NCBI GenBank assembly: GCA_964016885.1
Contig: OZ024744.1
Location: 44,268,001-44,332,000 of the forward strand
Origin: Eledone cirrhosa
Taxonomy: Eukaryota
DNA: 64,000 nt
Reading direction: 5' to 3'
Part shown: piece by piece, positions 22,841 to 63,256 of the stretch
Position numbering within the stretch: position 1 is the stretch's first letter
Layout of the letters: each line of letters starts with the position of its first letter
The notes under the pieces: model-generated
Database searches by the model: none
Told to the model about the DNA's origin: nothing
What the model saw: the letters and a program-made list of their open reading frames with translations, nothing else
Program-made: the position numbers and the translations under genes

Positions 22841-22841
22841 A

Positions 22842-24250: not shown

Positions 24251-24272
24251 TTAGACAAAAAAGGAAGCGGAG

Positions 24273-24356
<84 letters not shown>

Positions 24357-24361
<5 letters not shown>

Positions 24362-30835: not shown

Positions 30836-30841
30836 AAATAA

Positions 30842-35520: not shown

Positions 35521-35599
<79 letters not shown>

Positions 35600-38861: not shown

Positions 38862-39265
38862 TATTTTTATTTTTATTTTTATTTTTATTTTTATTTTTAT
38901 TATTTATATTTTTATTTTTATTTTTATTTTTATTTTTATTTTTATTTTTATTTTTATTTTTATTTTTATTTTTATTTTTTTTATTTTTATTTTTATTTTT
39001 ATTTTTATTTTTATTTTTATTTTTATTTTTATTTTTATTTTTATTTTTATTTTTATTTTTATTTTTATTTTTATTTTTATTTTTATTTTTATTTTTATTT
39101 TTATTTTTATTTTTATTTTTATTTTTATTTTTATTTTTATTTTTATTTTTATTTTTATTTTTATTTTTATTTTTATTTTTATTTTTATTTTTATTTTTAT
39201 TTTTATTTTTATTTTTATTTTTATTTTTATTTTTATTTTTATTTTTATTTTTATTTTTATTTTTA
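38862..39265. repeat. (TTTTTA)n microsatellite
   Basis: Direct observation. Confidence 0.98.
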
Positions 39266-39688
39266 TTATTATTCTTATTTATATTTAAACTCTTAATAAG
39301 GGTTAGTTTGTGCTTGTATTGATGGAAATGTGTATTGATATATATGTATATATGTGTACATATGTATATATATATATATGTATACTGGGCCTTTTAATAT
39401 TATTATTATTATTATCATTATCAATTATATTATATTATATTATATTATATTATATTATATTATATTATATATAGTACAATAATTCCCGCTCTATATCACC
39501 ACCTTTGTTTAGCTTTAGTTTTTGCATTGGACTATATTTGTAATATGGTTCAAAATGATATTCAATTCCTTACCAATTTTTACTTGATAATTTTTACCCG
39601 ATAATTTTCCTATGCTTTAATGTATGTACACTCCATATTCTTCTGAGTTTTTGGCTTGTATTGGCCGATAGTGCTTCTTATAGCTTTA

Positions 39689-39733
39689 ATTGCCCTGATG
39701 AGTCCTTAATAGGACGAAACATTGTTGGCTAAT
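39689..39733 (+). ncRNA. Type I minimal hammerhead ribozyme
   Basis: GCC-CUGAUGA-GUCCU-UAAU-AGGAC-GAAAC-AUU-GUU-GGC. Confidence 0.85.
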
Positions 39734-41530: not shown

Positions 41531-41531
<1 letters not shown>

Positions 41532-41721
41532 CAAAGGAATTATGGTAAGGAACTGGATGGAGCATAACGTACCAGAGTAATCAATACTTAGGGTAGTAGA
41601 GTGGGAAATAGGAAAAAGTATGACGCCTACGGCAGAGCTCAAGCCGTTTCGACGGCTATTTCTTGACTCAGAAATAGCCGTCGAAACGGCTTGAGCTCTG
41701 CCGTCGGGGTCATACTTTTTT

Positions 41722-41724
<3 letters not shown>
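41531..41724. mobile_element. Palindromic half-hammerhead mini-element, copy 1
   Basis: About 55-bp inverted arms at 41609-41725; (TA)n flanks. Confidence 0.8.
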
Positions 41725-41770
<46 letters not shown>

Positions 41771-41991
41771 CATATATGCATACATGCATAGATAAATACA
41801 TACATATGTTTCAGGTATATTTATATATGTATATATTTTATATATACATATATGCATAGATAAATACATGCATATGTTTACAGGTATATTTATATATACC
41901 TGCAAATATTAGAACTCCCATAAACAGAAACGAGGTAAATTTCTTTGATTTGATTTGTTTCAGATTTATTCAATTACAGATTTTCCATAGA

Positions 41992-44900
41992 ATGCCTCGA
42001 AAAAGCAAGAGTCACATTCGAAGAAAAAGAAGAAATGCTTTTGCTTAGCGTTCTTTGCGCGCAAGCGAGGCAGAAGAACAATGTATGCTACGGCGTGCTC
42101 GCAATGATGCTTCTACTTCGATCGCCAGAGCATTACAGACAACTGAACAAGCAGAACTCCGGCTTGCTCGCAATGCTACTTCTACTTCGAAGGCCAGAGC
42201 ATTACAGACTGCTGAACAAGCAGAACTCCGGTTTGCTTGCGATGCTGATTCTACTTCAAATAACCGTGCTTTAGAGACTGTTGACCAAAGGGCAACAAGG
42301 CTTGCGGCTGATTCTCAACGGAAAATGCGCTCTCATGTCTTTCCGAGGGTTTCTTCCTGTTACTGGTCTAAGAAGGCTTTTCATTACAGCCTCCAAGAGG
42401 ACTACGCATCCCACCCACATATCATCATTGGTAGCATGTCAACTGTTTGCGTCCATTGTAACGCAATGAGGTGACCAGCGGAATCTACCGGTATATGCTG
42501 CTCCAATGGAACGGTTAGATTGCCTCATTTACAAGTCGGTGCCGAACCTTTGAATTCTCTGCTGCTTGGAGACACCCTGATTCTAAACACTTTCTTAGAA
42601 ATATAAGAGCCTACAATTTGGCTTTCCAAATGACAAGCTTTGGTCATACACCAATAAAACATGGAAATTATATGCCCACATTCAAAGTGCAAGGCCAAAT
42701 TTACCATCAAATTTGCTCCATTATTCCACAAGATGGCGATGAACACAGTTTTCTCCAGATTTACTTCATGGGGAACGGACCTGAAGAAACTGCACGAAGA
42801 GCTTCAGTTGCTAAAGGAACAATACCTTTTCCTCTGCAGTCCCTTCAATATATGCTTCATACCATAAACCTCTACATCACCATTTTCAAAACTGCTTTTA
42901 AGCGTAGAGATGCTAACACCAATCAATTCAAGGTTGTCATTCGAGGTGACTACGCTCCACCAGGGCAGCATCAGAGCTCCTTTAACAGACCCCAAACCTA
43001 TGAAGTTGCGGTGCTTATTAGAAGTCCTAATGAGAGTGCTTCAAATCGTGATATTGTTCTTGAATGGCAGGACTCGCGTCTTCAAAAAATAAATGAACTT
43101 CATCCTGCATATGATGCCCTCCAATATCCATGACTGTTCCCCTTTGGCGATGATGGCTACCGCATTGACTTGCCAAAGTGTAATCCGGTAACCTTAATGC
43201 ATCTTCAACCACGGAAAACCATTTCACAAATGGAATTTTATGCATTTAGGCTTATGGTTCGCAAAAACGACATCAACATTCTGCATAGAACACGGATGCT
43301 CCTCAATCAATACTGTGTAGACGTACTTGCTAAGGTAACTATTTCTTATTTTATGATTTCGTTTGGAAAATTTCCTTAGCCAGTTCACTCAATATTTACC
43401 ACAACAATTTCTTCCTTTTCCAGATTGACACTGAACGCCTCCAATGGATAAGACACCATCAAAGGAACTGCGTTCAGAAGAATACGGCCATCTACGTGAC
43501 GAAGTCAACCGAAATGATCAGGTTATTGCTCGGATGTTGGGCTTTTTGTCATTCTCCCATCGTCATACACTGGAGGCCCCCTTTTACATGCATGAAAAAA
43601 TGTAGGATGCTCTCACCTATGTCCGCCATTGTGGCCGTCCTGATCTTTTTATCACCTTCACATGCAATCCAAAATGGTTTGACATCTAGGCTCACTTACT
43701 TCATGGCCAAAATCCTTCACACAGGCATGATATCACATCTAGAGTGTTTCACCTAAAGCTTATGAAAATGATGGATGTTATAAAATACGGACAACTTTTT
43801 GGACCAATAAGGTGTTTCATGTACACCGTAGAATGGCAGAAGAGAGGACGCCCACATACCCATATTCTCCTTTGGCTTCAAAAAAAGCTCATATCAACTG
43901 ATGTTGATTCCGTTATACGTGCTGAATTGCCAAATCCCAAGACGACCCTGTCTTTTTTCAAATTATAAAAGCCAACATGATCCATGGGCCGTGTGGCCAC
44001 CTAAATACAAAATCTGCATGTACGATAATGAGAAATGTACAAAGCGTTACCCACGTAAACTCATCCATGAAACCAAAACTGGTGATGATGGCTACCCTTT
44101 ATACCGTCGCAGGGCACCACAGGAGGGTGGACATACGGCAACTATAACAATGGTTGGTGGTCAAGATTTCAATATTGACAACCGATGTGTTGTACCACAT
44201 AACAAGGTGCTTTGTAAAATGCTTTCAGCCCACTTAATGTTGAATTCTGCAAAACTCCGTAAAATCAATCCAATACATCTGCAAGTATATTCATAAGGGA
44301 GCCGATCGAGCAGTTATTGAGTTGGCTAAGACCGATAACCCTGATGCCGCCACAGATGAGGTCACGTTTTTCCAAACTGGACGCTACATCTCTTCTAACG
44401 AGGCATTTTGGCGCATATTCCGTTTTCCGATCCATGAACATGAACCTGCAGTTATTCACATCAGCGTTCATTTGGAGAATGGTTAACGGGTGTATTTTAA
44501 CCAACAAAATATGCTTGACTGTGCAAGACAACCTCGAAGAACGACCCTTACCGGATTCTTTGAACTTTGTACTTCTGACTCTCTTGCCAGAACACTGCTT
44601 TATGCGGAGTTGTCTACAATCTACACGTGGAATAAATCTTCCGGGTGTTGGCAAAGAAGAAAACGAGGATGCATTTCACAAAGGGATGCTTCGATGCGTG
44701 AGTCTGATACCCTCTCCAGAGTGTACACAGTTCACCGGCTCAATTCAGAATGCTTTCACCTTCTATTTTTTCGTCTTCTATTGCACGTTGTCAAAGGTCC
44801 AACTTCCTTTGAAGACCTTCGTACCGCCAATGGCCATATTTGTTCAACATTTAAAGAGGCCTGCTCCAAATTAGGCCTTCTGGACAATGATCACCATGAC

Positions 44901-46638
44901 CACGACCTCCATGAAGCATCAATGTTACAGTCACCAATTGCACTTCGTAAGCTTTTCGTCGTTATGCTGGAGTACTGCAGTCTTGGGAATCCAGTCTTTC
45001 AGGGAGAAATATCGCGACAGCCTGTGCTTGGACATCCTAATGCAATCTCTCTTCGCGTCCACACACATGAATTTACAGTTTACACCTGAAATGTACACCT
45101 GCAGTCTCATATTTCTAGAAGATAGACTTATACTTTTGGAAATGGGTGGTCGTCCCTTGAAGAACTACTGTATGGAATATCCTAAAAGAGAAAATGAGGC
45201 TGTTTGTAACCGCCCCCTACTAAGGGAGACATGCTACGATGCTGCCAGGCTTCTGTCCTATGTTCAAGAAAGAGAAAAACTTTTGAATCTTGAACAAGCT
45301 GATGTCTATACATTTGTTTTGACCATGCTTGAAGACACCAACAGTGGCAGTCACTTCCTTGATGCGCCAGGTGTCACAGGAAAGACATTTCTCCTCAACC
45401 TCCTTCTTGCCAAAGTTCACCAACGCGGACAGATTGCCATTGCAATGGCGTCTTCAGAAATAGCAGCAACACTGCTAGACGGCGGCAGAACAGTCAATTC
45501 AACATTTAAGCTTCCTCTTAACATCGGTCATGTTGAAAATCTGACCACCAATATAAAGAAGAATTCTGATGAGGCTGCTGTCTTTCAAAGATGCAAATTG
45601 ATTGTCTGGGACGAGGCAAGAATGTCCCACAAGAGCACTTGATGCAATCAATACAACGCTACAAGACCTGCGCTCCAATTCTAAACCGTTCGGTGGCGTC
45701 GTTCTGCTTCTTGCTGGAGATGTTCGTCAAACACTTCCCATTGTCCCGAAAGGCCAACCAGTTGATGAAATAGATGCTTGCATTAAACATTCTCATCTTT
45801 GGCGCTTCTTCCAGTCGAGAAAGTTAACCATCAACATGCGATCGATTCTCCACCAACAAGACGGTGACAATTACTTTGCTTCAAAGTTATTGGATGTGGG
45901 TAATGGGAACTTACCAATCGACGTAAACGGTTTGGTTGACATAAGTACCATCGGTAACTACGTCTCCAGCCCTGAGGACATTTGCACAAGTTTACCCCAA
46001 CCTCTCAACAAATTACGTCAGTCATCAATGGATGTGTGAAAGGGCCATCTTAGCTCCTACAAATGCCATCGTCCAAGCTCTTAACACATGTCTGCTTCGT
46101 CAACTTCCTTCCCAAGAGCGATGTTATGCTTCGATTGATTTGATTACGGATCCCACGCAAGTAACGTTTTATCCAACAGAGGTTTTAAACTCACAAGAAC
46201 CATCGTGAATGCCACCGCATAAACTCTGCCTAAGACTTGGAAGTCCCATCATACTCTTGAGAAACTTGGAACCTCCTCAGCTTTGCAATGGCACACGCTT
46301 GGTTATAACGCAAATGTTGGGTGACGTTCTCAAGGCTACAATCATTAGGGAAAAAGCGCTAGCGACTCTGTTTTTATTTCCAGAGTTCCACTTATCCCAA
46401 CTGACTGTGTCTTTCCGATGAAAAGAGTCCAATTCCCCATTCGATTAAGTTTTGCAATAACCATTAACAAAGCCCAGGGGCAGTCACTAAAAGTGGTTGG
46501 GCTGGACATCAGTACTCCATGCTTTTCACACAGGCAACTGTATGTGGGATGTTCAAGAGTTGGAAACTCGGCCAATCTATTTTACTAAGCTCCCGGAAGA
46601 TTTCAAAAAATGCGGTTTACAAGGCAGCCCTCCAATAG
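41992..46638 (+). pseudogene. Helitron A RepHel (HUH Rep plus PIF1 helicase), disrupted
   Basis: PDLFITFTCNPKW, EWQKRGRPHTHILLW, YICKYIHKG; DAPGVTGKTF, WDEARMSH, GDVRQTLP, LCNGTRL, FAITINKAQGQS. Confidence 0.95.
43335..43423 (+). other. GT-AG intron in RepHel
   Basis: AAG|GTAACT...TTCCTTTTCCAG|ATT; splicing restores VDVLAKIDTERLQWIR. Confidence 0.8.
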
Positions 46639-47116
46639 TTTTTCAGTGGAGATGAAAGCCCCTTCAGGTTGGTCCTTATTGCGATTACTTACTTTTCACA
46701 ATAGGTAATGTTACTCTTCCAACAAATGCCCATTGATGAAATCAACCATTTTTTCATTTCAATGGACAGCCTTCCACATGCCCCAGGTTATTTCATAATT
46801 CAATTACACATGTAGTTTCTTACAGATTGCTTTCATGTCAACCGAACTGTCGTCTATGCTTTTTGTACCGATTCTTCAGCCATTCAGTCAATTAAACGAC
46901 ATTCCAAACGATATTTCCATCTTTCTCTATTTTCTATTTTCGATATTTCTATAATTTTCACATTTTAATGACAGATATCTGTAAATAAAACATGCTCTTT
47001 TTGAATACCGTCTCATTTTTTATTGAAAGATTTGATCACGTAACATTATCCTCCATGTTAAACATCGACAAGACGGAATTTCACCATTAAGACTGCAGTT
47101 CAACCAAGAACTAACA

Positions 47117-47146
47117 CTGTCCAATGGACAGGGGGGCATTTGCTAG
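47117..47146 (+). mobile_element. Helitron A 3' terminus
   Basis: Hairpin CTGTCC-AAT-GGACAG, 11 nt spacer, CTAG. Confidence 0.85.
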
Positions 47147-47740
47147 TCTACTATATAAGTCCCGTTCTGTCTGTCTGTAAAGTATTATAACTTGCGATAT
47201 GTTCACCCGATCCCGCTAAACTTTTACACATTGGCAAAGGAGGATGCGAGACGTGTCAATAACAACTATTTATTGCATAATTGTTACTTTCAAAGTGATA
47301 ATCGCCATTTTTCTAATACATGTGTGACTTTGCGGTAAAAAAATCTCCATTAGAACTGCCGTAAGCAGGAACCCGGCTGAGAAAGAGAAGGAAGTAGAAA
47401 GTGCAGAGTAGATGAGAGAGAGGGGCAGAAAAAGAAAGAGAGAGAATGTCTATAGGAGGGAAACAGCGACAGAAAGAAAGAGACAAAGAAACAAGGGGGA
47501 GAGAGAGAGTGAGTGAGAGAAGGCCGTGTGAGACAAGGGACTGGCAAAAAGAGAGAGAAAGAAGAGGCTGTGTGAGAGAGGAAAGAAAGAGAGAGTGAGA
47601 CAGTAAGTAACCACATGTTGTGAGAAGAGAAGCAGACGACAAGATAAAATATTAAACACGATATTAGAAAAATATTTTTGTAAATATGACAATATTTTAT
47701 ATATACATACGTGCATAGATAAATACATACATATATTTAC

Positions 47741-47745
<5 letters not shown>
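47147..47745 (+). mobile_element. Helitron A 5' end module, unit 2
   Basis: TCTACTATATAAGTCCCG immediately after CTAG; homologous to 20712-21280. Confidence 0.8.
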
Positions 47746-47771
<26 letters not shown>

Positions 47772-47952
47772 ACGAAGGAATTGTGGTAAGGAACCAGATG
47801 GACCATAACGCACCAGAGTAATCAACACTGAGGGTGGTAGAGTGTGTAATAGGAAAAAGTATGACACCGACGGCAGAGCTCAAGCCGTTTCGACGGCTAT
47901 TTCTGAAATAGCCGTCGAAACGGCTTGAGTTTTGTCGTCGGGGTCATACTTG

Positions 47953-47954
<2 letters not shown>
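47772..47954. mobile_element. Palindromic half-hammerhead mini-element, copy 2
   Basis: Homologous to copy 1; (TA)n flanks. Confidence 0.8.
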
Positions 47955-48031
<77 letters not shown>

Positions 48032-48333
48032 GTAATTCTGTTGGAAAGGTCCAGGAAAAAAGAGTGCTCTCTGTAGGTTACAGAGCTTATTAGTTATGTA
48101 ATAAACAACATAAGATAATTATTTCATTTACCAGTGGTTTCTTGGAAGCAAACAAAATTTGCTTTCAGTCATCAGAATGAAAAAAATGCAGGTGTATTTA
48201 TTGACAGTAGATTTTAAAAACAAAAATATAATATATATGAAAGTGAAGCTGGAAAAAGAAGAAGGAAAGGAAAAAGAATAAATATAAAAGTAGATAAACA
48301 CACACACACACACTCACACACACACACATACAT

Positions 48334-48398
<65 letters not shown>

Positions 48399-48631
48399 TA
48401 CACATACATATATATATTTACCCTTAATTTTATTCTGAGTTAAGACTCTATAGATTTTTTTCCCTGGATTAGACAAAATCTGTGGATAAAATTTCTGTCT
48501 TGACTTTTTTTTAATTGAGATTGAATTATTTTCCTATTTCTTACGTTAAATATTTTCCATCTTGACGTAATAGTCACTTATATGTTTGAATTACTGTTGG
48601 CTTCTTGCTCACATTAATTTCTCTATTATTC

Positions 48632-48689
<58 letters not shown>

Positions 48690-48890
48690 TTAGTTATACT
48701 ATTTATGGTTATGCAAATACAAAACCTTAAGCAGTTGTAAGTATTTTACACACACCCTAAATAGTGGTAGGCAGTAATGTATTACTACCTTATTACCAGT
48801 AAGTTAAGTAGCTCAATGTAAAAACATCAGATGATTTACAGAGCAGTTATATGAAATATAAGAATCAAAGAACTGCTCAAAACATTATTG

Positions 48891-48937
48891 TGCTTACAGC
48901 TGTTTCCTCCAAACCGAGGTTTGGATTCTTCGGAGCA
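48891..48937 (-). ncRNA. Hammerhead ribozyme, variant core CCGAAGA
   Basis: UGCU-CCGAAGA-A-UCCAAACC/GGUUUGGA-G-GAAACAGCUGUA-AGCA. Confidence 0.75.
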
Positions 48938-50385
48938 ATTTATTAATGCATGGACAGTTATATGACCTCCTTTTCAGCCGAGAGACATACCAAATACATA
49001 TTCAAACATTGATACATATTCAAACATTGTGGGTCAACATTCATTACAGAATTTAGAGTGGCAGTACACACTTCGAGATTACATTTATATTAATAGGTAC
49101 AATCAAAAATCAAAGATATAGGTTAAAGTACAACATGAAGATAAGTGGTTATATAGTGCAAATGTTATATGTGTGGCACGCATGTGCGTCTTGTTTATAT
49201 AGTGTGGCAGAGAGATATGTGTGGTAGAGGCACTTAGGTAGGTAAATAAGAGTGTTAGGTTGGTAGATCTGGTGGCAAAATCTTTATATGATTGATATAG
49301 TTTGTGTGTGGAGAAATATTATAAGCATTAAAGATAGTGCAAGCATTAAAAGTGTTAAAAGTGTTATAAGTATTGGAGATGCACAGCGCAGGGATGTCAA
49401 GTATTTCATGTACTTCGGCATTTTCATGGTCAGGGGAGTGTATATTTCGATTATACGCCTTTCACATAATCCACGACAATCCAGTTAGAGATCGTAGTCT
49501 GGTGTTCTTTAGTTCGATACAGGAGGTTGTTACGTTTCGAGAAACGCCATTGAATACCGGAAGTGTGTGTGTGGCTAAGGGGAGTTAATGCATGCGGGGA
49601 GGTAACTCTGGGGTTTCTATATCTAGCCATTAGAATGTGTCCCATTATAGACCCTAAATTCTATGGTGAAGTGCACCTTCCAAGAGAGACTTTTAAAGTA
49701 TAAAGTGTATTAACTATAGAGTAGTTTAACTAAGTTATGCTGAAGGTGATCATATTATTATGGTGGATTAACCCATCTTAAGGTGCTACAAATGGAAATT
49801 ATAGATGAAGCGAGGATTCTAAATTAATGATCTCTGTGGTTGTAGTCTGCTCATATGACCAGGCGCGGTGACTGCAGGATTGCTTCAGGACCCAATGATC
49901 TCTGGTAAGATCTGGGTCATCGCTTGCTACATTGGATGTCGAAAGATAATCGTCCCCAGGCAGGCCAAAGGTCAATCCGCAGTCCTCGCGACCCCTCTCT
50001 GACCGTCAGATCCTCCATATACGTACAACCCGCACGGCAGTTGCATTGCATTCACTCACTGCACTCAGCAGCCCGGTCCTACTGGTCAACAGCGCTACTC
50101 GATTAAATCATTTTACATCTGTCTAAGGAAGGTGTTTCCTCTGCCCAACACTATCCAACCGATCAATTCATGCTCAAATTACCCTTAGAGCGGTGTAGTG
50201 CCGTTCAAGTGGGTGGATGTTGTCACACCTGCCGTAGAGGTATAAATGGGTATTTTCCCTGCGAAGGGTTCCGGAGGGATGTCGTTGTTTGTGTTATAAA
50301 GGATCAGCTAGTGTTGGGTATGTAGTATAGGGTGTGTCTCTGGTGTTTGATGCTAGATGTGGTGTTAGGTTCCAGTCCGACATTG

Positions 50386-52845
50386 CTATATATAGGGCTT
50401 AAAGTTTTGGAAGGAATGTCTGAGGCGGTGCTGGCAAGTTGCAAACACCTCAGATTTTTTGTTAAGTAGGTTACGGTTGGAGAAGATAATATTGTGTGTC
50501 TCTAGTATACAGAGGTTACAGAATTTATTAGGTGGTTTGTACGAGGTCGCGCTGCCTATCACTTCCCATTTGAGTGTGTATGGTTTATTTTTAGATTTTA
50601 GATAGTGTATGTAGCTAGAAAGTGAGGTGGAGTTGGCTAGGCTGTGCTTTTTGAACGAGTGGATGTGCGAGTTATATCTGATTTTGAAGCAGTTAGAAGT
50701 GGAGCCTACATAGGTTTCTGAAGAGTTATTAGTCGTGACTGTGCATGAGTATATGACATCCTTGGTTAGGCATTTTTTATCTAAAGGGCAGGTTCTATTA
50801 GCTCTACAGTTACAATTATCCTGTGCGTTAGTCCGCTGGTTATAATGCAATGCGGAAGTCTGTGTGGTGGATATAGGATTTTGGGTGTTCGGGTTGACAA
50901 CCCTGGTGTTATTACTTATACTAGTGTTATTTCTATTGTTACTGCCGTTGCTATGGTTGCTTGCTACAGTGGTATTTAGAGGGTTTGCATCCCGTTGTGA
51001 TTTTGTTTGTTGGAAGTAAGAACTAATTTTACTATTATTGCTGCTAGCTATGTGGTATGCTAAGTTAGGCGTCGTAGAGTATGAGATTTTAATGGTGTTT
51101 TTGTTTAAGAGGTTGTGGTACTTGTGTCCTAGAGGGAAGTTTTTATCTAGTAGTGAGAAGAAAGCCCTAGGTATGTTGGTGGAGACATTTAGGTTGAAAG
51201 GAGGGTTGAAAAATGTATTATTTCTTCTTCTATTTTTGCTTTTAGTGTTTGGTGTGTTGCTTCCTCCTAAGGCCCCACAGTAGTTTCCATGGTAATGGTT
51301 ACTTCCGGTGGCACCCTCCGTTTTGGTGTACTTGTGGTTGCTATTCCTATTATTAGATTTCCTCATGGACATGTTGTGCGAGATGATGTTGTAGCTATGT
51401 GTTTTCTTAGGTAGGAACTCAATTTCTATATTATGGCCGGAGCAAGCTAATGCTTGATTGTAATATTGTGAGTTTTTGCTAAATATGTTTGCGTCATAGG
51501 ACAGACTAGAGATTCTATTGGACACCCCCTTAGAGATAGAGTTTAATATTGATCTAGGGTGATTAGACTTGGTATCTACGTAAATAAGTTTCTCATTAGG
51601 CTTATGGAAAGGTGTATATATTTTTGAGTCTAGGTATAGTGTGGCGTCTAGGAAGTTAACATTTTTAGTGTTTTTGTCCATGGTGATACTAAGGTTAAAG
51701 TTTTTGAATGTCTTATGCAGTTGTTTTCTAGTTCTTTCTATATTAAATTTTTTATATTCTATGAGTAGAAGTGCATCATCGCGGTACAAACCACCGTTGA
51801 GGTAAGGGAGGTCTTTATGGATTTCATTGAGGAGGTATAGGCCGACCAAATCAGTGACCTGCGCCGAGTCACTAGATCCCATGGTTATGTCGAAGTTGTT
51901 GTGCGTATCCTTGCGTGTCCATAGTTGGTCCTCGAAGGTGATTATGGTTTTACGGGCCGCAAGGATGACATCAACCTGGGCTCTAGTCAGGTCGCTATTG
52001 GTCATGGCCATGATAAGTGCCTTATTTAATAGGATAGGGGAAATAGAGGTGTAGTATGAATTGATATCAAATTGAATAAATTTTTTGTTCTTATTATTCT
52101 TGATATCCTTGAACCATTCAATTACTTCACCCGTATTTCCTCATTGTTTAAGGTGTATCTTGTGTTTAATTTGTGGGATGATTTTATCCAAAATCTTCTT
52201 GCTGATAATACCAATGTCGGACTTGGAAGGGCAGATAAGTCTTATCGTGGGGTTGCTGATGAAGTTCTCCTTATGGTCCTTCAGAGAGAATCTAGGGAGG
52301 TTCGGAGTGAAAGGTTGTGTATGCCTCTGTAGTCCTAGTTTAGACACTATATTATAACCCTCTACATTAATATCTTCTAAGTTTTTCAAGGTGGTTTTTT
52401 TGTAGCTTTTATGTAGTTCATTATATATAAACTTTCTATAAGTAATATAATCTAGGCTGTATATGTTATTAGTTTTATCTGCGTGTACAATAATTTTATT
52501 ACTAGTTTTGAATCCATTAATAGAAGTGTTAAGTTTGTTTAAGAAGGTGTTGCTTCTAATATGGTGCTTATTGTATTTAATGTTCTTAACTAGTTTAACT
52601 AGGTCATTTTCAAAGGAGTTAAGTAGAGTGTTATGAGGGGGGCTTTTAAAGGTTTTAAAGCCTAAGGAGTCAAAATTGTTAGTATTATTCAAGTTGTTAG
52701 ATTTGTTTCTATCATAATGGAATGTCCTCCATCTCACTCTATTGATAAATGAATTTACACTGTTGATCAGCAATTTCTCATATGTATTCCTGGATGGTAT
52801 TGGTATGTTCTTGGTTGACATGGGGAGTTGGTCTTTGATTAGCAT
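50386..52845 (-). pseudogene. PLE RT plus GIY-YIG polyprotein with a single in-frame TGA
   Basis: ADKTNN, FIQFDINSYYTSI, DITMGSSDSAQVTDLVG, LYRDD, YVGSTSNCFKIRYNSH; the two listed ORFs are in frame across the stop at 52141-52143. Confidence 0.92.
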
Positions 52846-53094
52846 ATTGGCAATATTATATGTCAGCTCAACGATATGGAGCAGTTAATAGTATTAGTTA
52901 TACTATTTATGGTTATGCAAATACAAAACCTTAAGCAGTTGTAAGTATTTTACACACACCCTAAATAGTGGTAGGCAGTAATGTATTACTACCTTATTAC
53001 CAGTAAGTTAAGTAGCTCAATGTAAAAACATCAGATGATTTACAGAGCAGTTATATGAAATATAAGAATCAAAGAACTGCTCAAAACATTATTG

Positions 53095-53141
53095 TGCTTA
53101 CAGCTGTTTCCTCCAAACCGAGGTTTGGATTCTTCGGAGCA
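53095..53141 (-). ncRNA. Hammerhead ribozyme copy in 5' pseudo-LTR
   Basis: Same sequence as 48891-48937. Confidence 0.75.
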
Positions 53142-53853
53142 ATTTATTAATGCATGGACAGTTATATGACCTCCTTATATGGCTAGATATAGAAACCCCA
53201 GAGTTACCTCCCCGCATGCATTAACTCCCCTTAGCCACACACACACTTCCGGTATTCAATGGCGTTTCTCGAAACGTAACAACCTCCTGTATCGAACTAA
53301 AGAACACCAGACTACGATCTCTAACTGGATTGTCGTGGATTATGTGAAAGGTCTATAATCGAAATATACACTCCCCTGACCATGAAAATGCCGAAGTACA
53401 TGAAATACTTGACATCCCTGCGCTGTGCATCTCCAATACTTATAACACTTTTAACACTTTTAATGCTTGCACTATCTTTAATGCTTATAATATTTCTCCA
53501 AACACAAACTATATCAATCATATAAAGATTTTGCCACCAGATCTACCAACCTAACACTCTTATTTACCTACCTAAGTGCCTCTACCACACATATCTCTCT
53601 GCCACACTATATAAACAAGACGCACATGCGTGCCACACATATAACATTTGCACTATATAACCACTTATCTTCATGTTGTACTTTAACCTATATCTTTGAT
53701 TTTTGATTGTACCTATTAATATAAATGTAATCTCGAAGTGTGTACTGCCACTCTAAATTCTGTAATGAATGTTGACCCACAATGTTTGAATATGTATTTG
53801 GTATGTCTCTCGGCTGAAAAGGAGGTCATATAACTGTCCATGCATTAATAAAT

Positions 53854-53900
53854 TGCTCCGAAGAATCCAAACCTCGGTTTGGAGGAAACAGCTGTAAGCA
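53854..53900 (+). ncRNA. Hammerhead ribozyme copy in inverted pseudo-LTR
   Basis: Same sequence, plus strand. Confidence 0.75.
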
Positions 53901-53931
53901 CAATAATGTTTTGAGCAGTTCTTTGATTCTT

Positions 53932-53992
<61 letters not shown>

Positions 53993-53994
<2 letters not shown>

Positions 53995-55100
53995 TCCAGT
54001 GCCACGGAACACCCGCCCATCGCCTCACGGTCGAACAACGTACTATCTTCATCTTACAGACCCACACTCCCCCCGGCCTGAACTCTCCACCCTTATTCCT
54101 TTAGCGTTCGACCCCACCGCTCCCCTCCTTCAAACGCGCACGCAATCTCCGCACCCTCCTCGTCCACAGCTCCCTACCCCCCAACCCACGCCCCCCGGTT
54201 CCTTCCCCTGTTCTAGGCCCCGCTGCAACACCTGTCCCCACATCACCAACACCACCACCTTCCAGGGTCCCAACGGCCACCCTCTCTCGGTCCGGCATGC
54301 CTTCCGCTGCACCTCCTCCAACCTAGTCTACGGACTTCGTTGCACGGAGTGCAGCGCGACTTATGTCGGACAGACGGGACGTCGCCTGGCGGACCGAGTC
54401 ACGGAGCACCTCCGGGATATTCGTCTCGGGGGCAGTTCCCCCATCGCCCGCCACTTTGGTGGCCCTGGACACTCCGCACGCCATCTCACAGTCTGTGGCC
54501 TACTCCAGTGCCACGGAACACCCGCCCATCGCCTTACGGTCGAACAACGCACTATCTTCATCTTACAGACCCACACTCCCCCCGGCCTGAACTCCCCACC
54601 CTTATTCCTTTAGCGTTCGACCGCCCCCCTCCCCCCACACTTATCCTCCACTAACACCACTAAAACACCCCTCCTTTTCACCGCCCACCCCACACTAACA
54701 ATACTAACACCTCCACTCCACCCCTCATCTGACCACCCTTCCCCAACTAACATACTAACATCCCTTCCCTCCCCTCTTCTCCTACTCCCCCCTCCTTATC
54801 ACACGCACACACGCACCCACTTACACCACCCACCCCACACGCAACTAACATCACTAACACCCTCCAACCCCACGCACACGTACCCACACACCCTCGTACA
54901 CCACCAACTCTACACACCCTACCCCCACTAACCCCCACTCACACCTGCATTCCACCCCTCCCCACCTCCCGTCTACTAACACCCACTAACACCTCCTCAC
55001 CAAACTACACACACACCAGTACACCACACTCCCTCCATAGAACCACACACACCCTTCTCTCCCCACTCCACACTCACTCATCCCACTAACACCCCTACTA

Positions 55101-55147
<47 letters not shown>

Positions 55148-56094
55148 CCTCACTCCAACTCTCACACCTACCCATCCTCGCCTCCCTACCATTCCGCTGA
55201 CTGCTGCTATGCCCTTCCGACCACTGTCTCAGCACCAACTGACCACAGCACTTCCACTGCTGACCACTTCCTGTTGCGCGCGCACCCCACATCTCTCCTC
55301 TTCCGACCACCGCTTCTTGGATTACCGACACGCGTTTTGACTTCCAACCAAAATCTCCATACATCCGTGTAACTTACCACTTTCAACCATCCTCTAACAC
55401 CATCACCTATATAACTCACCCACACACACATCCCAAAAAAATTTTTTTTATCCACACGCCACCCACACCCACAACACGCTTAAACCACACACACGTGCTT
55501 CCCACCACATATTTACACCCTCAGCCCCTGATTCCTCTCCCCCACCCCCTATCCACACACGCACAGACCTTCCGACACACAAAAACACCCCCCACACACA
55601 CCTTCCTGAACATGCAACCCCGTTCTTCCCCCAACCCTCACTTTCACATACACACACACGCACACACACGCACACCTAACCACACACACCACCTTCAGCC
55701 CTCCCCGCTCGGACACCCCGTCTCCCTCTCCCCACTCCACCCGCCTCCACCTCTACTCACCCCACACCCTTCCACCACCTGTTTACCCCCCTTTTAATTT
55801 CAGTTTATTTTGATCATGCCTTTATTTTTAAATGTTCTCATTCCTTGTATTTTGATCATGCTTTATTTTTATTTATTATTTATTATATTTTTGTCTTTAT
55901 TTGTTAATTTTTCATTCGCACCGTTTCCTTTCGCTATATGTCTCTCCACCACTCCCCTACACACCTTTTGAACTCTTACCTGAAGAAGGGCTTATGCCCG
56001 AAACGTCGTCCTCCACCTACCCCCCACTCTCCTGAGCGTGAATCTAATAAACATTTGTCGTACTGCCTCTCTGTTCTGTCCCTGTTCAATTTTT

Positions 56095-56100
<6 letters not shown>
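53993..56100 (+). mobile_element. 5'-truncated C-rich PLE (Neptune-like endonuclease)
   Basis: PGSFPCSRPRCNTCP..CTSSNLVYGLRCTEC..YVGQTGRRLADRVTEH; C-rich 3' UTR; HHR at the 3' end; (TA)n flanks. Confidence 0.88.
55978..56010 (+). ncRNA. Minimal hammerhead motif
   Basis: CUGAAGA-A-GGGC-UUAU-GCCC-GAAACGUC; stem I weak. Confidence 0.7.
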
Positions 56101-56137
<37 letters not shown>

Positions 56138-56138
<1 letters not shown>

Positions 56139-56320
56139 CGAAGGAAATGTGGTAAGGAACCAGGTGGACTATAACGCACCAAAGTACTCAATACTTAGGG
56201 TAGTAGAGTGGGTAATAGGAACGAGTAGGACCCCGACAGCTCAAGCCGTTTCGACGGCTAATTCTGGACTGAATTAGCCGTCGAAACGGCTTGAGTTCAG
56301 CCGTCGGGGTCCTACTCGTT

Positions 56321-56323
<3 letters not shown>
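56138..56323. mobile_element. Palindromic half-hammerhead mini-element, copy 3
   Basis: Homologous to copy 1, with changes mirrored in both arms. Confidence 0.8.
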
Positions 56324-56359
<36 letters not shown>

Positions 56360-56663
56360 ATACATACACATACACATAAATACACAAACACAAACAGACA
56401 CATATATATACACACACACAATTATATATATATACACACATACATACACACACATACATACACACATATATACACGCATACATACGCACACACACAATTA
56501 ATTATAATAAAAAATAAAAAACCATGAACAACCATATAATGCAATAGGCCGTCACATACAAATAAAAAATATAAAATAAGACTGAAGAAAATAAAAATTA
56601 TTATTAAGTTGACAGCGATTCAGGAAAGGACACAAATAAATAAACAAACATACGTGGTAAGCA

Positions 56664-56694
<31 letters not shown>

Positions 56695-56747
56695 TGCATA
56701 TAAATATATACATACACACACACATATAAACACACATATACATATAT

Positions 56748-58225
56748 GTCTAGGGCGGGTAAAATTCCCGAGATCCATGGACGAGTTCTCTCCAGCGGTC
56801 TCTGTCCCTCATTATCGCTGCCATGTCCTGCATCTCCAACAGACCAGTGTCTGTCCTTAGGGCATACGTTAACCTTGTTCTTCCTGTTCCAGTGTGTCCA
56901 TGTAGTGGCTCCCACAGGAGCACTGAGTGCAATGTCAACTCTGGATGTCGGTGAGCATGTTCAGCTAACCTCATTCTCCTCTGTGTTACTTTTGAGCTGA
57001 CTTTTGGGAGGCTCCCATACAGCTCTGAGTTTTTCATCCTCAGTGTATACTGATTAATGTTCAGAGCCATCCTCAGAATTCTCGTGTAACACCCATCCAC
57101 CATCCGAGTGAGTTTCTTGGTCAGTGTCCAAGTCTCAGATCCGTACAGCAGCACAGACTCCACTACAGCAATGAAGAGGCGGATTTTCAGGTCTTTACGA
57201 AGGTGCGACTTTCACACCGATCTCAAGCTGTGGCACGCCACCCAGACTTTGCTCTTCCTCTGAACCACATCATCTTCCGTATTCCCAATCTTTGCTCCCA
57301 AATACAGGACGCCCTCAACCAATTCTAGCGGCTTCCCGCCTACATAAGTGATCCCCTCTGGCTTCTCAACATTCTCTACCAGATATTTTGTTTTAGTCTC
57401 ATTCATTCTCAGCCCCACACTCATCGACACAGTCTCAACCTACTACATCAAATCCTCTTCCTCCTTCACTGTATTTGTCACCAAAACTATGTTGTCGGCA
57501 AATTCAGCATCTGATACCTTTTTCGCCTTAACTCTCCTGCTCTGAGCCGGTGCTACAGTAAAGCCAGAGTCCTGGTGTTTCTCCAGTGAAAGGCGCATAC
57601 AATAGTCCACTACGATGATAAAAAGGTAGGCAACCAACATATCTCCCTGGAGCACTCCAGCCAGTATCTCAAAGAACTCTGTCATCCCATCAGATGTAAT
57701 GACTTGGGCTTTGGTGTTGGTGTAGAGCAGTGATATCAGGTCCACTATCTTCTTGGGGATTCCATAAGCCTGTAAGATCTTCATCAAGCAGTGACGGTCC
57801 ACAGAATCAAAAGCCTTCCTAAAGTCAATGAAAACCATGACCGCAGGAAGGCACTTTGCTCTAGCTCCCTCTAATATCCTCCTAAGCATCAGGATGTGAC
57901 TGGTGGTTGATCTTCCCTCTCTGAAGCCGTTCTGGTTATCCCTGAGCTTCTTCTCCATCTCAGGCTGGATCCTGGTCAGAATCATCCTGTTGAGGGTCTT
58001 TGCCACAAGTGACGTCAGTGAGATCCCCCTGTAGTTGTTGGTGTTAGAGAGATCTCCCTTCTTTGGCACTGGGACGATGTTACTGATCCTCCACTGATTC
58101 GGGGCAACTACTTTCTCCAGTTCCCGGTTACAGAACCCCAGGATGATATCATCATCACACCTCTTCATCACCTCTGATGCCACTCCATCTTCTCCATGAG
58201 CCTTTCCCTCCTTGATCTTCTTCTT
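56748..58225 (-). pseudogene. RTE-like LINE, 5'-truncated RT fragment
   Basis: PVPKKGDL..NYRGISL, QNGFREGRST, FIDFRKAFDSV, GVLQGD, FADNI, LLYGSETW. Confidence 0.9.
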
Positions 58226-58227
58226 GT

Positions 58228-59168
58228 ATATATGGCGATGTACACAAATACATACATGCATATATGGCGACGTACACAAATATACATATACACAAATATA
58301 CATACATGCATATATGGTGACATACACAAATATACATATACACAAATACATACATGTATATATGGCGACGTACACAAATATACATATACACTCATACATA
58401 CATGCATATATGGCGATGTACACAAATATACATATACACACATACATACATGAACATTTGAAAGATGAGCAAGGGTAAGGGGTGTGTGATATAGTGAGAC
58501 AATGTCAAAGGTATGGATACATATATAATAATACATATATAATAATACATATATAATAATACATATATAATAATACATATATAATAATACATATATAATA
58601 ATACATATATAATAATACATATATAATAATACATATATAATAATACATATATAATAATACATATATAATAATACATATATAATAATACATATATAATAAT
58701 AAAAGTAAAGAATAAAAATATATATGAAAAATGAAAAAAGTTAGAATACAGTAAAAGTAGTAAGAGGGTGTTATAAAGTAAAACAATAAAGCTAAAAATG
58801 AATATATAAATGTATATTTATATCTGTACGTATACGTGTGTATATTTTTACTCATAACTCCGATAAACGCGGTACATTGAGAAAGAGAAGGAAAGGGAAG
58901 TACAGAGTAGAAGAGAGAGAGTGAGAGAGTGAGAGAGAGAGAAGGCTGTGTGAGAGAAGGGACTGGCAAAAAGAGAGAGAAAGAAGAAGCTGTGTGTGAG
59001 GGGAAAGAAAGAGAGAGTGAGACAGTAAGTAACCACATGTTGTGAGAAAAGAAGCAGACGACAAGATAAAATATTAAACACGATATTAGAAAAATATTTT
59101 TGTAAATATGACAATATTTTATCTATGCATACATGCATAGATAAATACATACATATGTTTACAGGTAT
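58228..59168 (+). repeat. 48-bp array, 16-bp array and Helitron arm module (unit 2 equivalent of 21761-24680)
   Basis: Shared unique spacer gaacatttgaaagatgagcaagggtaagggg and same order of parts. Confidence 0.85.
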
Positions 59169-59349
59169 ATATATATATAACAACAGAACCCTTGCTCATC
59201 AACAACCACAACACATACCACCCCCACCATCACATTCACCCTCATGAAACAACAAGCTACAGACCCACACGCAACAGACCAACAAAATATAATCACACAC
59301 AAAACTACATTCCTTTTTTAGGGAAAAGCCTGAAATACCAGGATACTCG

Positions 59350-61620
59350 ATGGCCCCCCCTCAGGAGAAACCAAAAATAATCAACCTCTCAAAGACACCT
59401 CTAACCAACACACAAATCAACATTTTAAGTAAGGGCCTGAAATTTACACCTACACCACGTAAACCAAACTTCCCCGAAATGAAGGATGACATCATGGAAT
59501 ACTGCCGAAAGCTGCGACTAACGGAATTCTTCCACAACGACACCAACACTGAAGACGAATCACTGGTTAGAAATAAAAGCAATTTCTGCCCACAAAAGGG
59601 AAGAAATAAAGCACTGGACACGTACTGCGAACACATCACCAACTTTCCCTATGAAAAAATTACAAATAAACACACGAAATCAAACCTATCTACACACGAA
59701 TGGGAAGAATTATTCACACTTAGAAACAACCCTGAGATAACCATCAAAGAAGCCGATAAAGGCAGTACTGTTGTCATTATGAATACGGACTACTATAGGA
59801 CCCTCGCACTTAACATTTTAGAAAACAACACATACTATGAAAAAACAGAAAACTACAAACACACCAAAACAATGGGGAACCTTTTGACCTTACTGAATAA
59901 ATACCACAACAGCTTAACCACAAAAGAGTTTAACTATATAAGCCACTTCAAATGCAATACAAGCTCTTTTTACGGCTTACCGAAACTCCACAAATGTAAA
60001 CCTATAAACGATGCATGTGACACCTCAACCAACAATTACATTGAACTAACACCACCAGAATACCTAAAACTCAGGCCAATTATAGCAGGCCCTACATGTG
60101 AAAGACTTAGCAACTTTCTGGACATCCTACTGAAACCCTTTCTACAACATATACAGAGCTACATACGAGATGACCTTGACATGCTGAAACACCTCCCTAA
60201 AATAGTAAGTGCAAATACAATTCTTGTCTCCTTTGACGTAATAAACCTCTACACAAACATACCTCACAACTATGGAATAACAGCAGTCCAATACTGGCTT
60301 AACACACACCCATCAGAAATACCGACACGCATCAACACAGATTTTATCACTGACGGACTCCGCTTTATCCTACAAAATAACTACTTCACATTCAATGGTT
60401 CAACATACAGACAAGTATCAGGTACGGCAATGGGCACGAAAGTAGCACCCACATATGCCAACCTAGTCATGGGATTCCATGAACAACAAATATACAGTCA
60501 GTCCCTTCTCTTATTTGGAGACTCTTTCCACACACACCTCAAAGCCAATTGGAAAAGATATCTAGACGACTGCTTTATCCTATGGCAAGAAGACATGAAC
60601 TCACTTACTACGTTTAAAAACATGATAAACAACATAGATAATAACATACAATTCACAATGGAATCCAATCCTAAGGAATTAGCCTTCTTGGATATTCTCA
60701 TCTCTGTAATAGACGGGAAATTAGATACAGATATATTCTATAAACCCACAGATTCCAAGCAATACCTCTTTTTCATATCAAGTCACCCAACACATACAAA
60801 ACTTAACATTCCTTACGATTTGGCCAAACGTATATGTACCATAGTATCAGATCCACCTAAACGGGAGCAAAGACTAAAGGAACTAAAAGACACCCTTATC
60901 TTAAGAGCCTTTCCACTTGAAATAATCAACAATGGAATAGACAGGGCAAAACACCTAAATCCCCATCAACTTAACAATCCAAAACAGAAAACCACACTCA
61001 ACACCCTGCCATATGTATCCACTTTCAACCCCAGAAATACCGAAATGTTTGATCACCTACACAAAAACCTCCCCATCCTACTTAAAGATGTAAAAATGAA
61101 GTCTATTCTTGAAACACACAAGATCCTTAAAAGTAAAAGACAACCCAAATCACTTAAACGCATTCTCACTGGACCAAATATACCCAAACCAATCCTCAAC
61201 CCTACAGTTACCAAATGTGGTAGAACAAACTGTGGAACGTGCCTCTACCTCACTGAAGGACAAACATTTACATTCAAAGATGGCCAAACATTTACAGTAA
61301 AAAACAATTTCACCTGCAACTCGGAGAACTTGATTTACGCAATAACTTGCGGTGGGTGCAAACACAACTACATAGGACAGACGGGCACCTCATTACGCAA
61401 AAGAATGACCATCCACTGCCAACAAATCCGGGACGCTAACACAAGAAAAATCCCCTTGAGCAGCCATATTGCGAACTGCGCAGGAATGACACTACCCAAC
61501 TTTAAAATCTTCCCCTTCTACAAGTGCTCAGATTCGTTCACACAGCAACAAAGAATAAACAAAGAAAATCTATTCCTTAACAAATTTAAACCAAAACTAA
61601 ACGGGTTATCACCCCAATAG
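59350..61620 (+). CDS. PLE (Neptune-like) RT plus GIY-YIG endonuclease, uninterrupted 756 aa
   Basis: LSKGLKF, ADKGSTVV, FYGLPKLHK, SFDVINLYTNI, GTAMGTKVAPTYANL, WKRYLDD, CGRTNCGTC, IYAITC..YIGQT. Confidence 0.92.
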   Translation: MAPPQEKPKIINLSKTPLTNTQINILSKGLKFTPTPRKPNFPEMKDDIMEYCRKLRLTEFFHNDTNTEDESLVRNKSNFCPQKGRNKALDTYCEHITNFPYEKITNKHTKSNLSTHEWEELFTLRNNPEITIKEADKGSTVVIMNTDYYRTLALNILENNTYYEKTENYKHTKTMGNLLTLLNKYHNSLTTKEFNYISHFKCNTSSFYGLPKLHKCKPINDACDTSTNNYIELTPPEYLKLRPIIAGPTCERLSNFLDILLKPFLQHIQSYIRDDLDMLKHLPKIVSANTILVSFDVINLYTNIPHNYGITAVQYWLNTHPSEIPTRINTDFITDGLRFILQNNYFTFNGSTYRQVSGTAMGTKVAPTYANLVMGFHEQQIYSQSLLLFGDSFHTHLKANWKRYLDDCFILWQEDMNSLTTFKNMINNIDNNIQFTMESNPKELAFLDILISVIDGKLDTDIFYKPTDSKQYLFFISSHPTHTKLNIPYDLAKRICTIVSDPPKREQRLKELKDTLILRAFPLEIINNGIDRAKHLNPHQLNNPKQKTTLNTLPYVSTFNPRNTEMFDHLHKNLPILLKDVKMKSILETHKILKSKRQPKSLKRILTGPNIPKPILNPTVTKCGRTNCGTCLYLTEGQTFTFKDGQTFTVKNNFTCNSENLIYAITCGGCKHNYIGQTGTSLRKRMTIHCQQIRDANTRKIPLSSHIANCAGMTLPNFKIFPFYKCSDSFTQQQRINKENLFLNKFKPKLNGLSPQ

Positions 61621-62079
61621 AATTGTCATAAAATATAAACACACACACGCACGGAATCACTATTATTAAAGACCAGAGACCAATTCTGTAGAATCAGGTT
61701 TATTCGTTGACAGACCATGCCTTTGTGTGACCAACACATCCATGTTAAACCCTGCACGTGCACACACATATATCTATGTATATATGCGCACACAGAATTC
61801 ACCACTGTCGGTTGCGCGGCCCAATCTACATGAAGAACTCAATGTGATCAGAATGACTTGTATTTTAATTTCACTGTCCCAACTTCTTATATTATGGAAA
61901 AAATATATGTGTCTGTATGTATATATATATATATATATATTTGGAGGCCATTTCTCTGTGTGTGGGTGTATGTATATGTATATGTGTGTGTGTGTATGTG
62001 TGTGCATGTGGATGTATGTATTGTGTGTGCGTGTGTGTGTGTGTGTATGTATGTGTGTATGTGTATGTATATATATGTT

Positions 62080-62136
<57 letters not shown>

Positions 62137-62199
62137 ATGTGTATATATGTGTGTGTGTGTATGTGTGTGTATATGTATGTGTGTGTGTATGTATGTGTG

Positions 62200-62264
<65 letters not shown>

Positions 62265-62627
62265 GTATATGTATATGTATGTATGTGTGGATGAAGGTAT
62301 GTGTGTATATATAGGTGTAAGTGCACTAAATCCCTTTCTATCACGCTCCACTCTCCTACCCACCACAGGAAGATATGTGTATGTATATTGCTTCCACCCC
62401 CTCAATGACCAGCAGCTGGCCAGTTGGCGATTGCTAAATCTGACCTTTATAAAATAACCCACACCCCAAATAACTTCTCATTCACTACCAGAAAGGGACA
62501 CAGCAGTCAACCTGTTGTTGCTACCTAGATGAAAACTGCTATGAAATCCCACAATAAATTTTATACTTGAATTTTCAAATCTCAAATTTTAACTCTTCGT
62601 ATTATTAATTTTTCTTAATATTAATCA

Positions 62628-62673
62628 ACATTTGAAAAGATGGCTTTTGTAGACCCATCGAAACCGGTCATTT
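62628..62673 (+). ncRNA. Hammerhead-like motif, variant core UUGAAAA, at the 3' end of the Neptune-like PLE
   Basis: UUGAAAA-GAUGG..CCAUC-GAAACCGGUC; stem I weak. Confidence 0.55.
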
Positions 62674-62811
62674 TTTATACCCTTTATTATTTCCTTACCT
62701 TATAAAATTACGTTTTTTCACAAAAAAGTATTCTGTCTCTTATATATTCCATGTGCCATTACCAACCTCAATTTTCTCTATAACCTTCGTTTTGTGTAGA
62801 AAATTACACTG

Positions 62812-62864
<53 letters not shown>

Positions 62865-62926
62865 CAACGGTCAATTTTTAAAGGGGTACATCAATGTCTA
62901 TTTATAAAACTGTTATATATTGTATT

Positions 62927-62981
62927 TTGTCTGATGAAGGCATACCATAACGTAACTTGGTATCCTTGAAATATATTATAA
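62927..62981 (+). ncRNA. Hammerhead-like motif in a short (TA)n-flanked element (about 62865-63028)
   Basis: UUGU-CUGAUGA-AGGCAUACCA/UGGUAUCCU-U-GAAAU-AU-AUU-AUAA. Confidence 0.6.
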
Positions 62982-63027
62982 TGAAATAAATATGGTTTTA
63001 TAAATATAGTTTCCATTTATTAATATC

Positions 63028-63070
<43 letters not shown>

Positions 63071-63071
<1 letters not shown>

Positions 63072-63256
63072 CGAAGGAATTGTGGTAAGGAACCAGATGG
63101 ACCATAACGCACCAAAGTACTCAATACTTAGAGTAGTAGAGTGGGTAATAGGAACAAGTATGACCCCAACGGCAGAGCTCAAGCCGTTTCGACGGCTATT
63201 TCTGAAATAACCGTCGAAACGGCTTGAGCTCTGCCGCCGGGGTCATACTTGTTCTT
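63071..63256. mobile_element. Palindromic half-hammerhead mini-element, copy 4
   Basis: Homologous to copy 1. Confidence 0.8.

Follow-up and report, generated by a model that had tools for sequence, protein, structure and literature searches.

Minimal palindromic insertions of a Penelope-like retrotransposon in Eledone cirrhosa and their two preferred junction positions

Insertions of endonuclease-bearing (EN+) Penelope-like retrotransposons (PLEs) have been described as units with a head-to-head inverted pseudo-long terminal repeat (pLTR), a tail at one end, a (TA)n target and a palindrome at the junction (Craig et al. 2021, PMC8557442; Arkhipova et al. 2013, PMC3846280). PMC8557442, PMC4209133, PMC11167929 and PMC3846280 leave open the origin of the inverted pLTR, the strand that is copied and the role of the hammerhead ribozyme, and in vivo evidence for PLE hammerhead cleavage is described in this literature as lacking. 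Here, a 64,000-nucleotide stretch of the Eledone cirrhosa genome (GCA_964016885.1, contig OZ024744.1, positions 44,268,001 to 44,332,000 of the forward strand; hereafter the window) was analysed for four related elements that lie in one orientation, all in (TA)n (Table 1). An earlier note, made from the sequence alone, had described them as TA-flanked palindromes built from half a hammerhead, and their coordinates and (TA)n flanks were verified. The four copies are the shortest among tens of thousands of stubs derived from one PLE. The element class itself is known; what is new is that the junction centres pile up at two precise places. Direct observation covers the parent, its two end sites (separated by 77 nt), the single tail of each insertion, the near-unique junctions and the two hot spots. 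We consider it likely that the stubs are the shortest insertions of a Hydra-clade PLE, in which two cDNAs primed from a cut (TA)n tract were joined head-to-head after running off the 5' end of the RNA.

Parent element and insertion architecture

A whole-element search of the genome returned 3,395 first-look candidates, and a 27-nt piece of the tail had 36,904 exact matches genome-wide. The parent was reached through a CTGANGA-before-helix match, which linked the unique part of the element to the start of an open reading frame (ORF); a search with that ORF piece gave 1,046 genomic candidates, of which 20 copies were fetched. These copies defined an element of ~3.1 kb with reverse transcriptase (RT) and GIY-YIG motifs. 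The arm and tail run on into ORF pieces bearing YRDDG and YIG motifs, which bears out the relation to PLEs proposed in the earlier note, and every copy examined was broken. The protein carries the motifs RLRWR, SDKTGN (in most of the 20 copies), CNCPDRSTC, CNLCSEE and CKH; because these match the description in PMC8557442, the parent is assigned, by motif match alone, to the Hydra clade. Furthermore, its neighbours in a protein atlas were RT and GIY-YIG proteins of animals carrying RVT_1, GIY-YIG and HTH_animal, and 938 homologues were found, mostly unnamed and many of ~700 aa. A Pfam search with three ORF pieces gave no direct match, and a PDB search returned nothing relevant.

The parent also supplied the strand that the stubs lack. 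The hammerhead 5' core strand is missing from all four window copies (4/4), as the earlier note had seen, and in the parent it reads ACCCC-TTGANAA-G. A parent with a complete motif, as expected, does exist, with the core (T)ACCCC-TTGANAA rather than the predicted GACCCC-CUGANGA. At the RNA level the core is UUGANAA (U3-A8), accompanied by all boxes of a type I hammerhead: the 3-8 pair, G10.1-C11.1, GAAA, NUH and three helices, with position N7 free (G15, A5, C5, T5). Helix II is long (56 nt including the loop), and the free fold of one parent copy (L193) formed helices I-III with the core unpaired; an Rfam search with the parent motif gave no match. The centre of the stub does correspond to the 3' half of a hammerhead, as the earlier note had it. 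Self-cleavage is predicted for the complete motif, and the triplet on the + arm of copy 4 is GCC. The 3' half has 46,814 genomic matches and the 5' half 4,133, an 11-fold copy-number step between motifs ~50 nt apart. A canonical parent (GACCCC-CUGANGA) was sought and rejected, as its eight genomic CTGANGAGTCC matches were all junction products with differing upstream sequence. A non-LTR (long terminal repeat) retrozyme, described as tandem units each with a complete hammerhead (10.64898/2026.07.22.740005), was likewise rejected, since this family consists of single head-to-head stubs without a complete motif.

In each window copy, a unique segment of ~77 nt precedes a palindrome of ~105-115 nt, which includes a stem-loop together with GAAA and the site G(T/C)C-GGGGTC; as a correction to the earlier note, the element is palindromic in its 3' part only. 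The ends of long copies of the family fall at two places, TTCCTAT (the 'short' site) and a point 77 nt beyond it (the tail site), with 12 cases each among 24 classable of 30, and these two sites are exactly the outer ends of the mini-element. The layout was further evaluated in 93 copies with a tail, taken in order of position within the first 17 Mb of contig 1. An inverted arm was present in 76, of which 67 ended at the short site and one at the tail site (a tail-tail pair), so that 67/93 showed a tail-less inverted arm joined to an arm with the 77-nt tail in (TA)n. In addition, a single tail was found in 50/50 ultra-short palindromes and, as one tail plus one short end, in 6/7 long inverted pairs. 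Insertions of the parent family with a pLTR at both ends and an adjacent inverted, 5'-truncated copy are also present, and arm lengths form a continuum up to kilobases and full ORFs. This one-tail, head-to-head layout is the published PLE insertion pattern (PMC8557442, PMC3846280).

The relation between the two arms was assessed over 2,104 positions in 44 copies, each having 35 or more paired positions. Changes were mirrored in 98 cases and one-sided in 90, whereas shuffled arm pairs averaged 27 mirrored and 211 one-sided. Common alleles were mostly mirrored (72 vs. 14 one-sided), rare alleles, present in at most two other copies, mostly one-sided (10 mirrored vs. 78), and the window haplotypes were found in single long arms of parents. 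Therefore, the two arms have their source subfamily in common when they are inserted and decay independently thereafter, and the mirrored changes are haplotypes of parent subfamilies, not copy-specific ones. The four mirrored pairs listed in the earlier note were all found (in copies 1, 3, 3 and 4), and copy 2 is unmirrored. Its proposal of re-templating holds in so far as both arms are templated at insertion; repair of one arm from the other, including arm-to-arm gene conversion, and selection of the hairpin both find no support, given the mostly one-sided rare variants. Moreover, among 67 palindromes, 36 had centres that could be scored by pattern and 30 of these were distinct; a few centres in the family do recur (e.g. 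TTTC-T-GAAA). As the centres differ from copy to copy, each palindrome is likely to represent a separate insertion event.

Two junction positions and the proposed mechanism

The first hot spot lies in helix II. Among 169 arms, 130 were scored; 88 ended 10-26 nt upstream of GAAA and 10 went further. Both arms reached the A of AGTCC (-18) in 4,064 loci and, in the first 50 examined, rarely extended more than 4-6 nt past it. A class of untemplated bases was then defined by C or T next on both cDNAs (293 loci, covering several subfamilies and both orientations in 20 regions), and its first 50 loci were counted by hand. The base after the A of AGTCC was C on both arms in 46/50, T on one arm in 4/50 and T on both in 0/50, with a C-A-G or C-T-G centre in 28/50. 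In the parents, the RNA-strand base before AGTCC was T or C, and G in 0/28. A TATTTA-like box starts 29-31 nt upstream in 28/28 parents; we take this box to be TATA-like and TYAGTC to be initiator (Inr)-like. The extra base would correspond to an untemplated G at the RNA 5' end, probably a cap signature, as is accepted for the extra G at L1 5' junctions (PMC11702581). We infer from these positions that transcription starts within helix II of the hammerhead, where the RNA would have its main, capped 5' end. A start at that point would leave the stub with half a hammerhead, so that this half is probably the capped 5' end of the RNA. Copy 1 of the window fits the double-C class, and its untemplated C at 41669 is probably cap-derived, or alternatively the first base of the other arm.

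The second hot spot coincides with the predicted scissile bond. A search for ultra-short palindromes, limited as a local test to centres of at most 20 nt, gave 298 loci in one subfamily group, and the first 50 were classed. Both arms ended exactly at the bond with untemplated bases between them in 16/50 (a single A or T in nine) and without an insert, hence ambiguously, in 9/50; one arm lay at the bond with the other 1-3 nt short in 9/50, the GAC/GTC type accounted for 9/50 and others for 7/50. In insert-bearing junctions, 39/58 unambiguous arm ends had an offset of 0 from the bond, and the untemplated base was mostly A. The same class was less common in a second subfamily group (62 loci). These junctions are likely to reflect run-off from ribozyme-cut RNA, that is, a footprint of self-cleavage in vivo. 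Literature searches listed nothing on PLE insertions that end with a cap-derived G or at a cut site, which is no proof of absence and a result on which the supplements of PMC8557442 and PMC11167929 may bear. As a separate observation, the parents of the commoner group include a better-paired helix II base (GATC), the counts of 298 and 62 loci being without denominators. Higher ribozyme activity of one subfamily was considered on these counts and set aside as a lead only, since the groups also differ in age.

On the reading that we favour, the endonuclease would cut (TA)n on both strands, and each target 3' end would prime RT at one of the two fixed end sites. Both arms are likely to be run-off cDNAs of the sense RNA: both cDNAs would copy it to its 5' end, capped or, for a minority of templates, cut by the ribozyme, and would then be joined end to end, with end-joining often trimming a few bases. 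Such an RNA would start with the 3' half of the ribozyme only, with the two priming sites 61 and 138 nt further on, and priming so close to the cap would yield a large excess of tiny insertions. The arms would mirror each other because the RNA they copy comes from one subfamily and is, perhaps in most cases, a single molecule. If so, the tens of thousands of junctions would form a fossil map of 5' ends, giving the start site to the nucleotide, the likely capped sense template and the predicted ribozyme cut. The element class is ordinary, and the value lies in testable positions for the start site and the cut site.

Several points weigh against this reading. The cap, the start site and the cleavage are all read from DNA, and the hammerhead helices showed no covariation, the copies being too alike for that test. 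The main peak is spread broadly over 12-25 nt upstream of GAAA, with its tallest bins at -17, -15 and -12; at -18 there were only two scored arms, and part of the -25 bin stems from an alignment artefact. Double-cap loci form a minority, numbering 293 vs. 4,064 in which both arms reach -18 (by slightly different patterns), and the pattern used for untemplated C is blind to untemplated A. A second cluster at -22 is ambiguous for the cap, with some of its arms joined within the apical loop, which is self-complementary. A 5' pLTR starting near -18 occurs in only 2 of ~20 ORF-linked copies (L047, L060). Among the 25 junctions with both arms at the scissile bond, nine are insert-free and could be explained by CG microhomology. 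Finally, a few copies have arms from different subfamilies (L140, L142), so the template was not always a single RNA molecule.

In one rival reading, two-primer PLE insertion took place as proposed, but the main end peak arose from RT stalling in the folded hammerhead, at the apical hairpin of helix II, with subsequent joining by microhomology, and not from a transcription start. The breadth of the peak, the many junctions with 1-5 nt microhomologies or with the palindromic apical loop, and the other lengths of the 5' pLTRs in most ORF-linked copies agree with a stall. We nevertheless regard it as unlikely, since it does not account for an untemplated C at one nucleotide on both arms, where scissile-bond ends mostly gain A, for the distance of the TATA-like box in 28/28 parents, or for the abrupt copy-number step between the two hammerhead halves. 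The second arm could instead have been built by fold-back, that is, self-priming of a single cDNA or an antisense template (Arkhipova et al. 2013), which explains the mirrored haplotypes directly and suits the short, locally templated inserts in a few centres. However, each arm has its own untemplated base at the same RNA end (the C-A-G and C-T-G centres), the short site is also a primary 3' end of long copies, and some copies join arms of different subfamilies; fold-back is accordingly given very little weight.

About equally improbable, if not slightly more so, is a non-autonomous palindromic element, a parasite resembling a miniature inverted-repeat transposable element (MITE) or a short interspersed element (SINE), that spreads as a unit and whose hairpin is selected. 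The very high copy number, the few recurrent centres and local duplicates on the same chromosome are what such a unit would give. It is largely refuted by the distinct centres, the arm-length continuum up to full ORFs, the independent decay of the arms and the lack of terminal inverted repeats, the tail being on one side only. Of the ribozyme-less PLE parasite suggested in the earlier note, the relation to PLEs therefore stands and replication as a unit does not, and the MITE-like alternative with true terminal repeats fails on the one-sided tail and the variable centres. Local duplication, the other alternative raised there, accounts for part of the local cluster, in which copies 2 and 4 share a flank; the family itself is spread genome-wide. 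Helitron-like readings and those modelled on inverted terminal repeats of adeno-associated virus were considered and dropped after the parent had been found.

The two-cDNA reading can be carried further, though only tentatively and with less than even confidence. The stubs might be PLE 'strong-stop' cDNAs caught in the genome, the element having its promoter inside its own hammerhead and a terminally redundant mRNA with half a ribozyme at the capped 5' end and the complete one at the 3' end. RT, acting as a dimer, would prime twice near the cap; if the cDNA transferred to the 3' repeat, as it does in LTR elements, the pLTR with its TATA box would be rebuilt, and without a transfer the two cDNAs would be ligated into a palindrome. 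The 3' hammerhead copy could also cut the 5' half-ribozyme in trans. If this holds, the second junction class would be direct genomic evidence that PLE hammerheads cut in vivo and that the cut RNA still serves as a template.

Other observations touch the putative start site. In four loci with internal deletions (L037, L047, L061, L134), the sequence downstream of the deletion resumes at AGTCC or no more than 2 nt from it, with an extra G in two of them; template jumps from a capped 5' end into another RNA are a possible origin. Assembled contigs show a depth step at AGTCC in run X2, possibly the source sample, from ~147,000 to 3.2 million; this depth is not copy number, and the step was not counted. 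Informative joints were absent from the listing for these contigs.

The window copies and neighbouring elements

Copies 1-3 are 87-92% identical to copy 4, and arm-against-arm alignment revealed one-sided changes in all four. An Rfam search of the window gave no hammerhead match on the four copies. In copy 2 the arms carry AAAAAG and CTTGTT, respectively. A downstream flank of 269 bp is common to copies 2 and 4 (94%) and is also carried by further loci on the same chromosome; not all four copies are therefore independent, and part of the local cluster is duplication. Copies 1 and 2 share a rare tail variant, GTAATC (~41577-41581 and ~47818-47822), seen in 2/152 contexts among the fetched loci. 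As the right flank of copy 2 is that of copy 4, this suggests local gene conversion, and copy 2 is likely to be a local recombinant or duplicate. The haplotype of copy 3 recurs in long ORF-linked copies (L085/L161, L198, L202, L203).

Table 1. Positions of the four short elements and their parts, numbered from the first base of the window
Feature	Position	Strand	Description
Copy 1	41531..41726	-	Tail-bearing arm (RNA sense on -) head-to-head with tail-less arm (RNA sense on +)
Copy 1, 77-nt tail	41531-41607		
Copy 1, junction TTGACT-C-A	41663..41670	+	Arm extends to A of AGTCC; next C (41669) not templated by the parent
Copy 1, hammerhead 3' half	41683..41711	+	GAAA 41683-41686, helix III, GTC 41703-41705, helix I 3' strand GGGG
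Copy 1, predicted scissile bond	after 41705	+	Complete motif known from the parent
Copy 2	47772..47956	-	Junction at 47904; arms discordant
Copy 2, 77-nt tail	47772-47848		
Copy 3	56138..56323	-	Subfamily marked by AATT in helix II and by CCTACTCG extending helix I
Copy 3, 77-nt tail	56138-56214		
Copy 3, junction	56265-56270		One arm stops at A of AGTCC
Copy 4	63071..63256	-	Junction at 63203
Copy 4, 77-nt PLE tail	63071..63147	-	Continues in parents into 5' UTR (untranslated region) and ORF
Copy 4, tail-bearing arm, palindromic part	63148..63203	-	Internal 'short' priming site (TTCCTAT) at 63148-63150
Copy 4, tail-less arm	63204..63256	+	Ends at the short site in (TA)n

The window also contains other PLEs. 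An ORF at 50497-52836 (-), 36-44% identical to pieces of the parent protein, is framed by 619-bp perfect inverted repeats (49012-49630 and 53179-53797); with its arms 100% identical, it is a young insertion of a related family. A third related fragment (50% identity) lies at 29195-30088 (-) between inverted repeats at 28060-28675 and 30090-30840. Canonical CTGANGA type I hammerheads of other families were found at 39689-39733 (+), with a weak Rfam match to Hammerhead_1 (29.1 bits), and at 55980-56010 (+), in an element whose end lies in the (TA)n tract that also flanks copy 3. Multi-copy local repeats and duplications of 0.5-1.3 kb surround the copies (20712-24700, 35597-41163, 47147-47743 and 58225-59179). 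Among the loci fetched elsewhere, a diverged and older relative, likewise built as a palindrome plus tail, stands beside a young copy (L031 at ~1570-1790; L078, upstream). Moreover, a complete pLTR changes subfamily haplotype between helix I and the tail (L109/L190), possibly through a crossover inside the terminal repeat.

Comparison with known systems

The parent shares with the Hydra clade, as described in PMC8557442, the RW(K/R) and DKT motifs (here RLRWR, with R for K, and SDKTGN), the CxCx5C linker, the CxxC and CxH motifs around a conserved E and N, insertion into (TA)n and a 3' hammerhead. A CCHH motif, absent in that clade, was not seen on reading the parent translations, for which no formal search was made. 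In contrast to the canonical hammerhead of Hydra-clade PLEs, the parent has a U3-A8 core, a known variant, and it also stands apart by its long helix II, its length of ~3.1 kb and its long 3' UTR. Schistosoma Cercyon PLE hammerheads likewise combine U3-A8 covariation, a short helix I and a long helix II, and their motifs lie near one another on opposite strands (Cervera and De la Pena 2014, PMC4209133).

The in vitro results for PAc Poseidon (Frangieh et al. 2024, PMC11167929) resemble what is seen here in that the tail is set by two internal start sites of RT and in that both target strands are nicked and extended. That paper reports no RNA-seq reads at the hammerhead cut and cleavage that is dispensable in vitro, whereas Eledone insertions end exactly at the predicted cut. 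L1 offers parallels in the extra G at the RNA 5' end and in the use of two primers from one break (twin priming; PMC11702581), but there the cDNAs cover adjacent parts of the RNA, while the Eledone arms cover the same part to the same 5' end. Transcription of Drosophila virilis Penelope also starts within the pLTR (Schostak et al. 2008, PMC2377424), from a downstream, TATA-less promoter, whereas in Eledone a putative TATA-like box would lie upstream, in the 5' strand of the hammerhead. Compared with the EN+ PLE insertions of PMC8557442 and PMC3846280, the tail is 77 nt rather than 30-40 nt, and minimal palindromes are the majority product (67/93), unlike in the units described there. Furthermore, the Eledone junctions point to two cDNAs from sense RNA, where PMC3846280 prefers self-priming on an antisense template.

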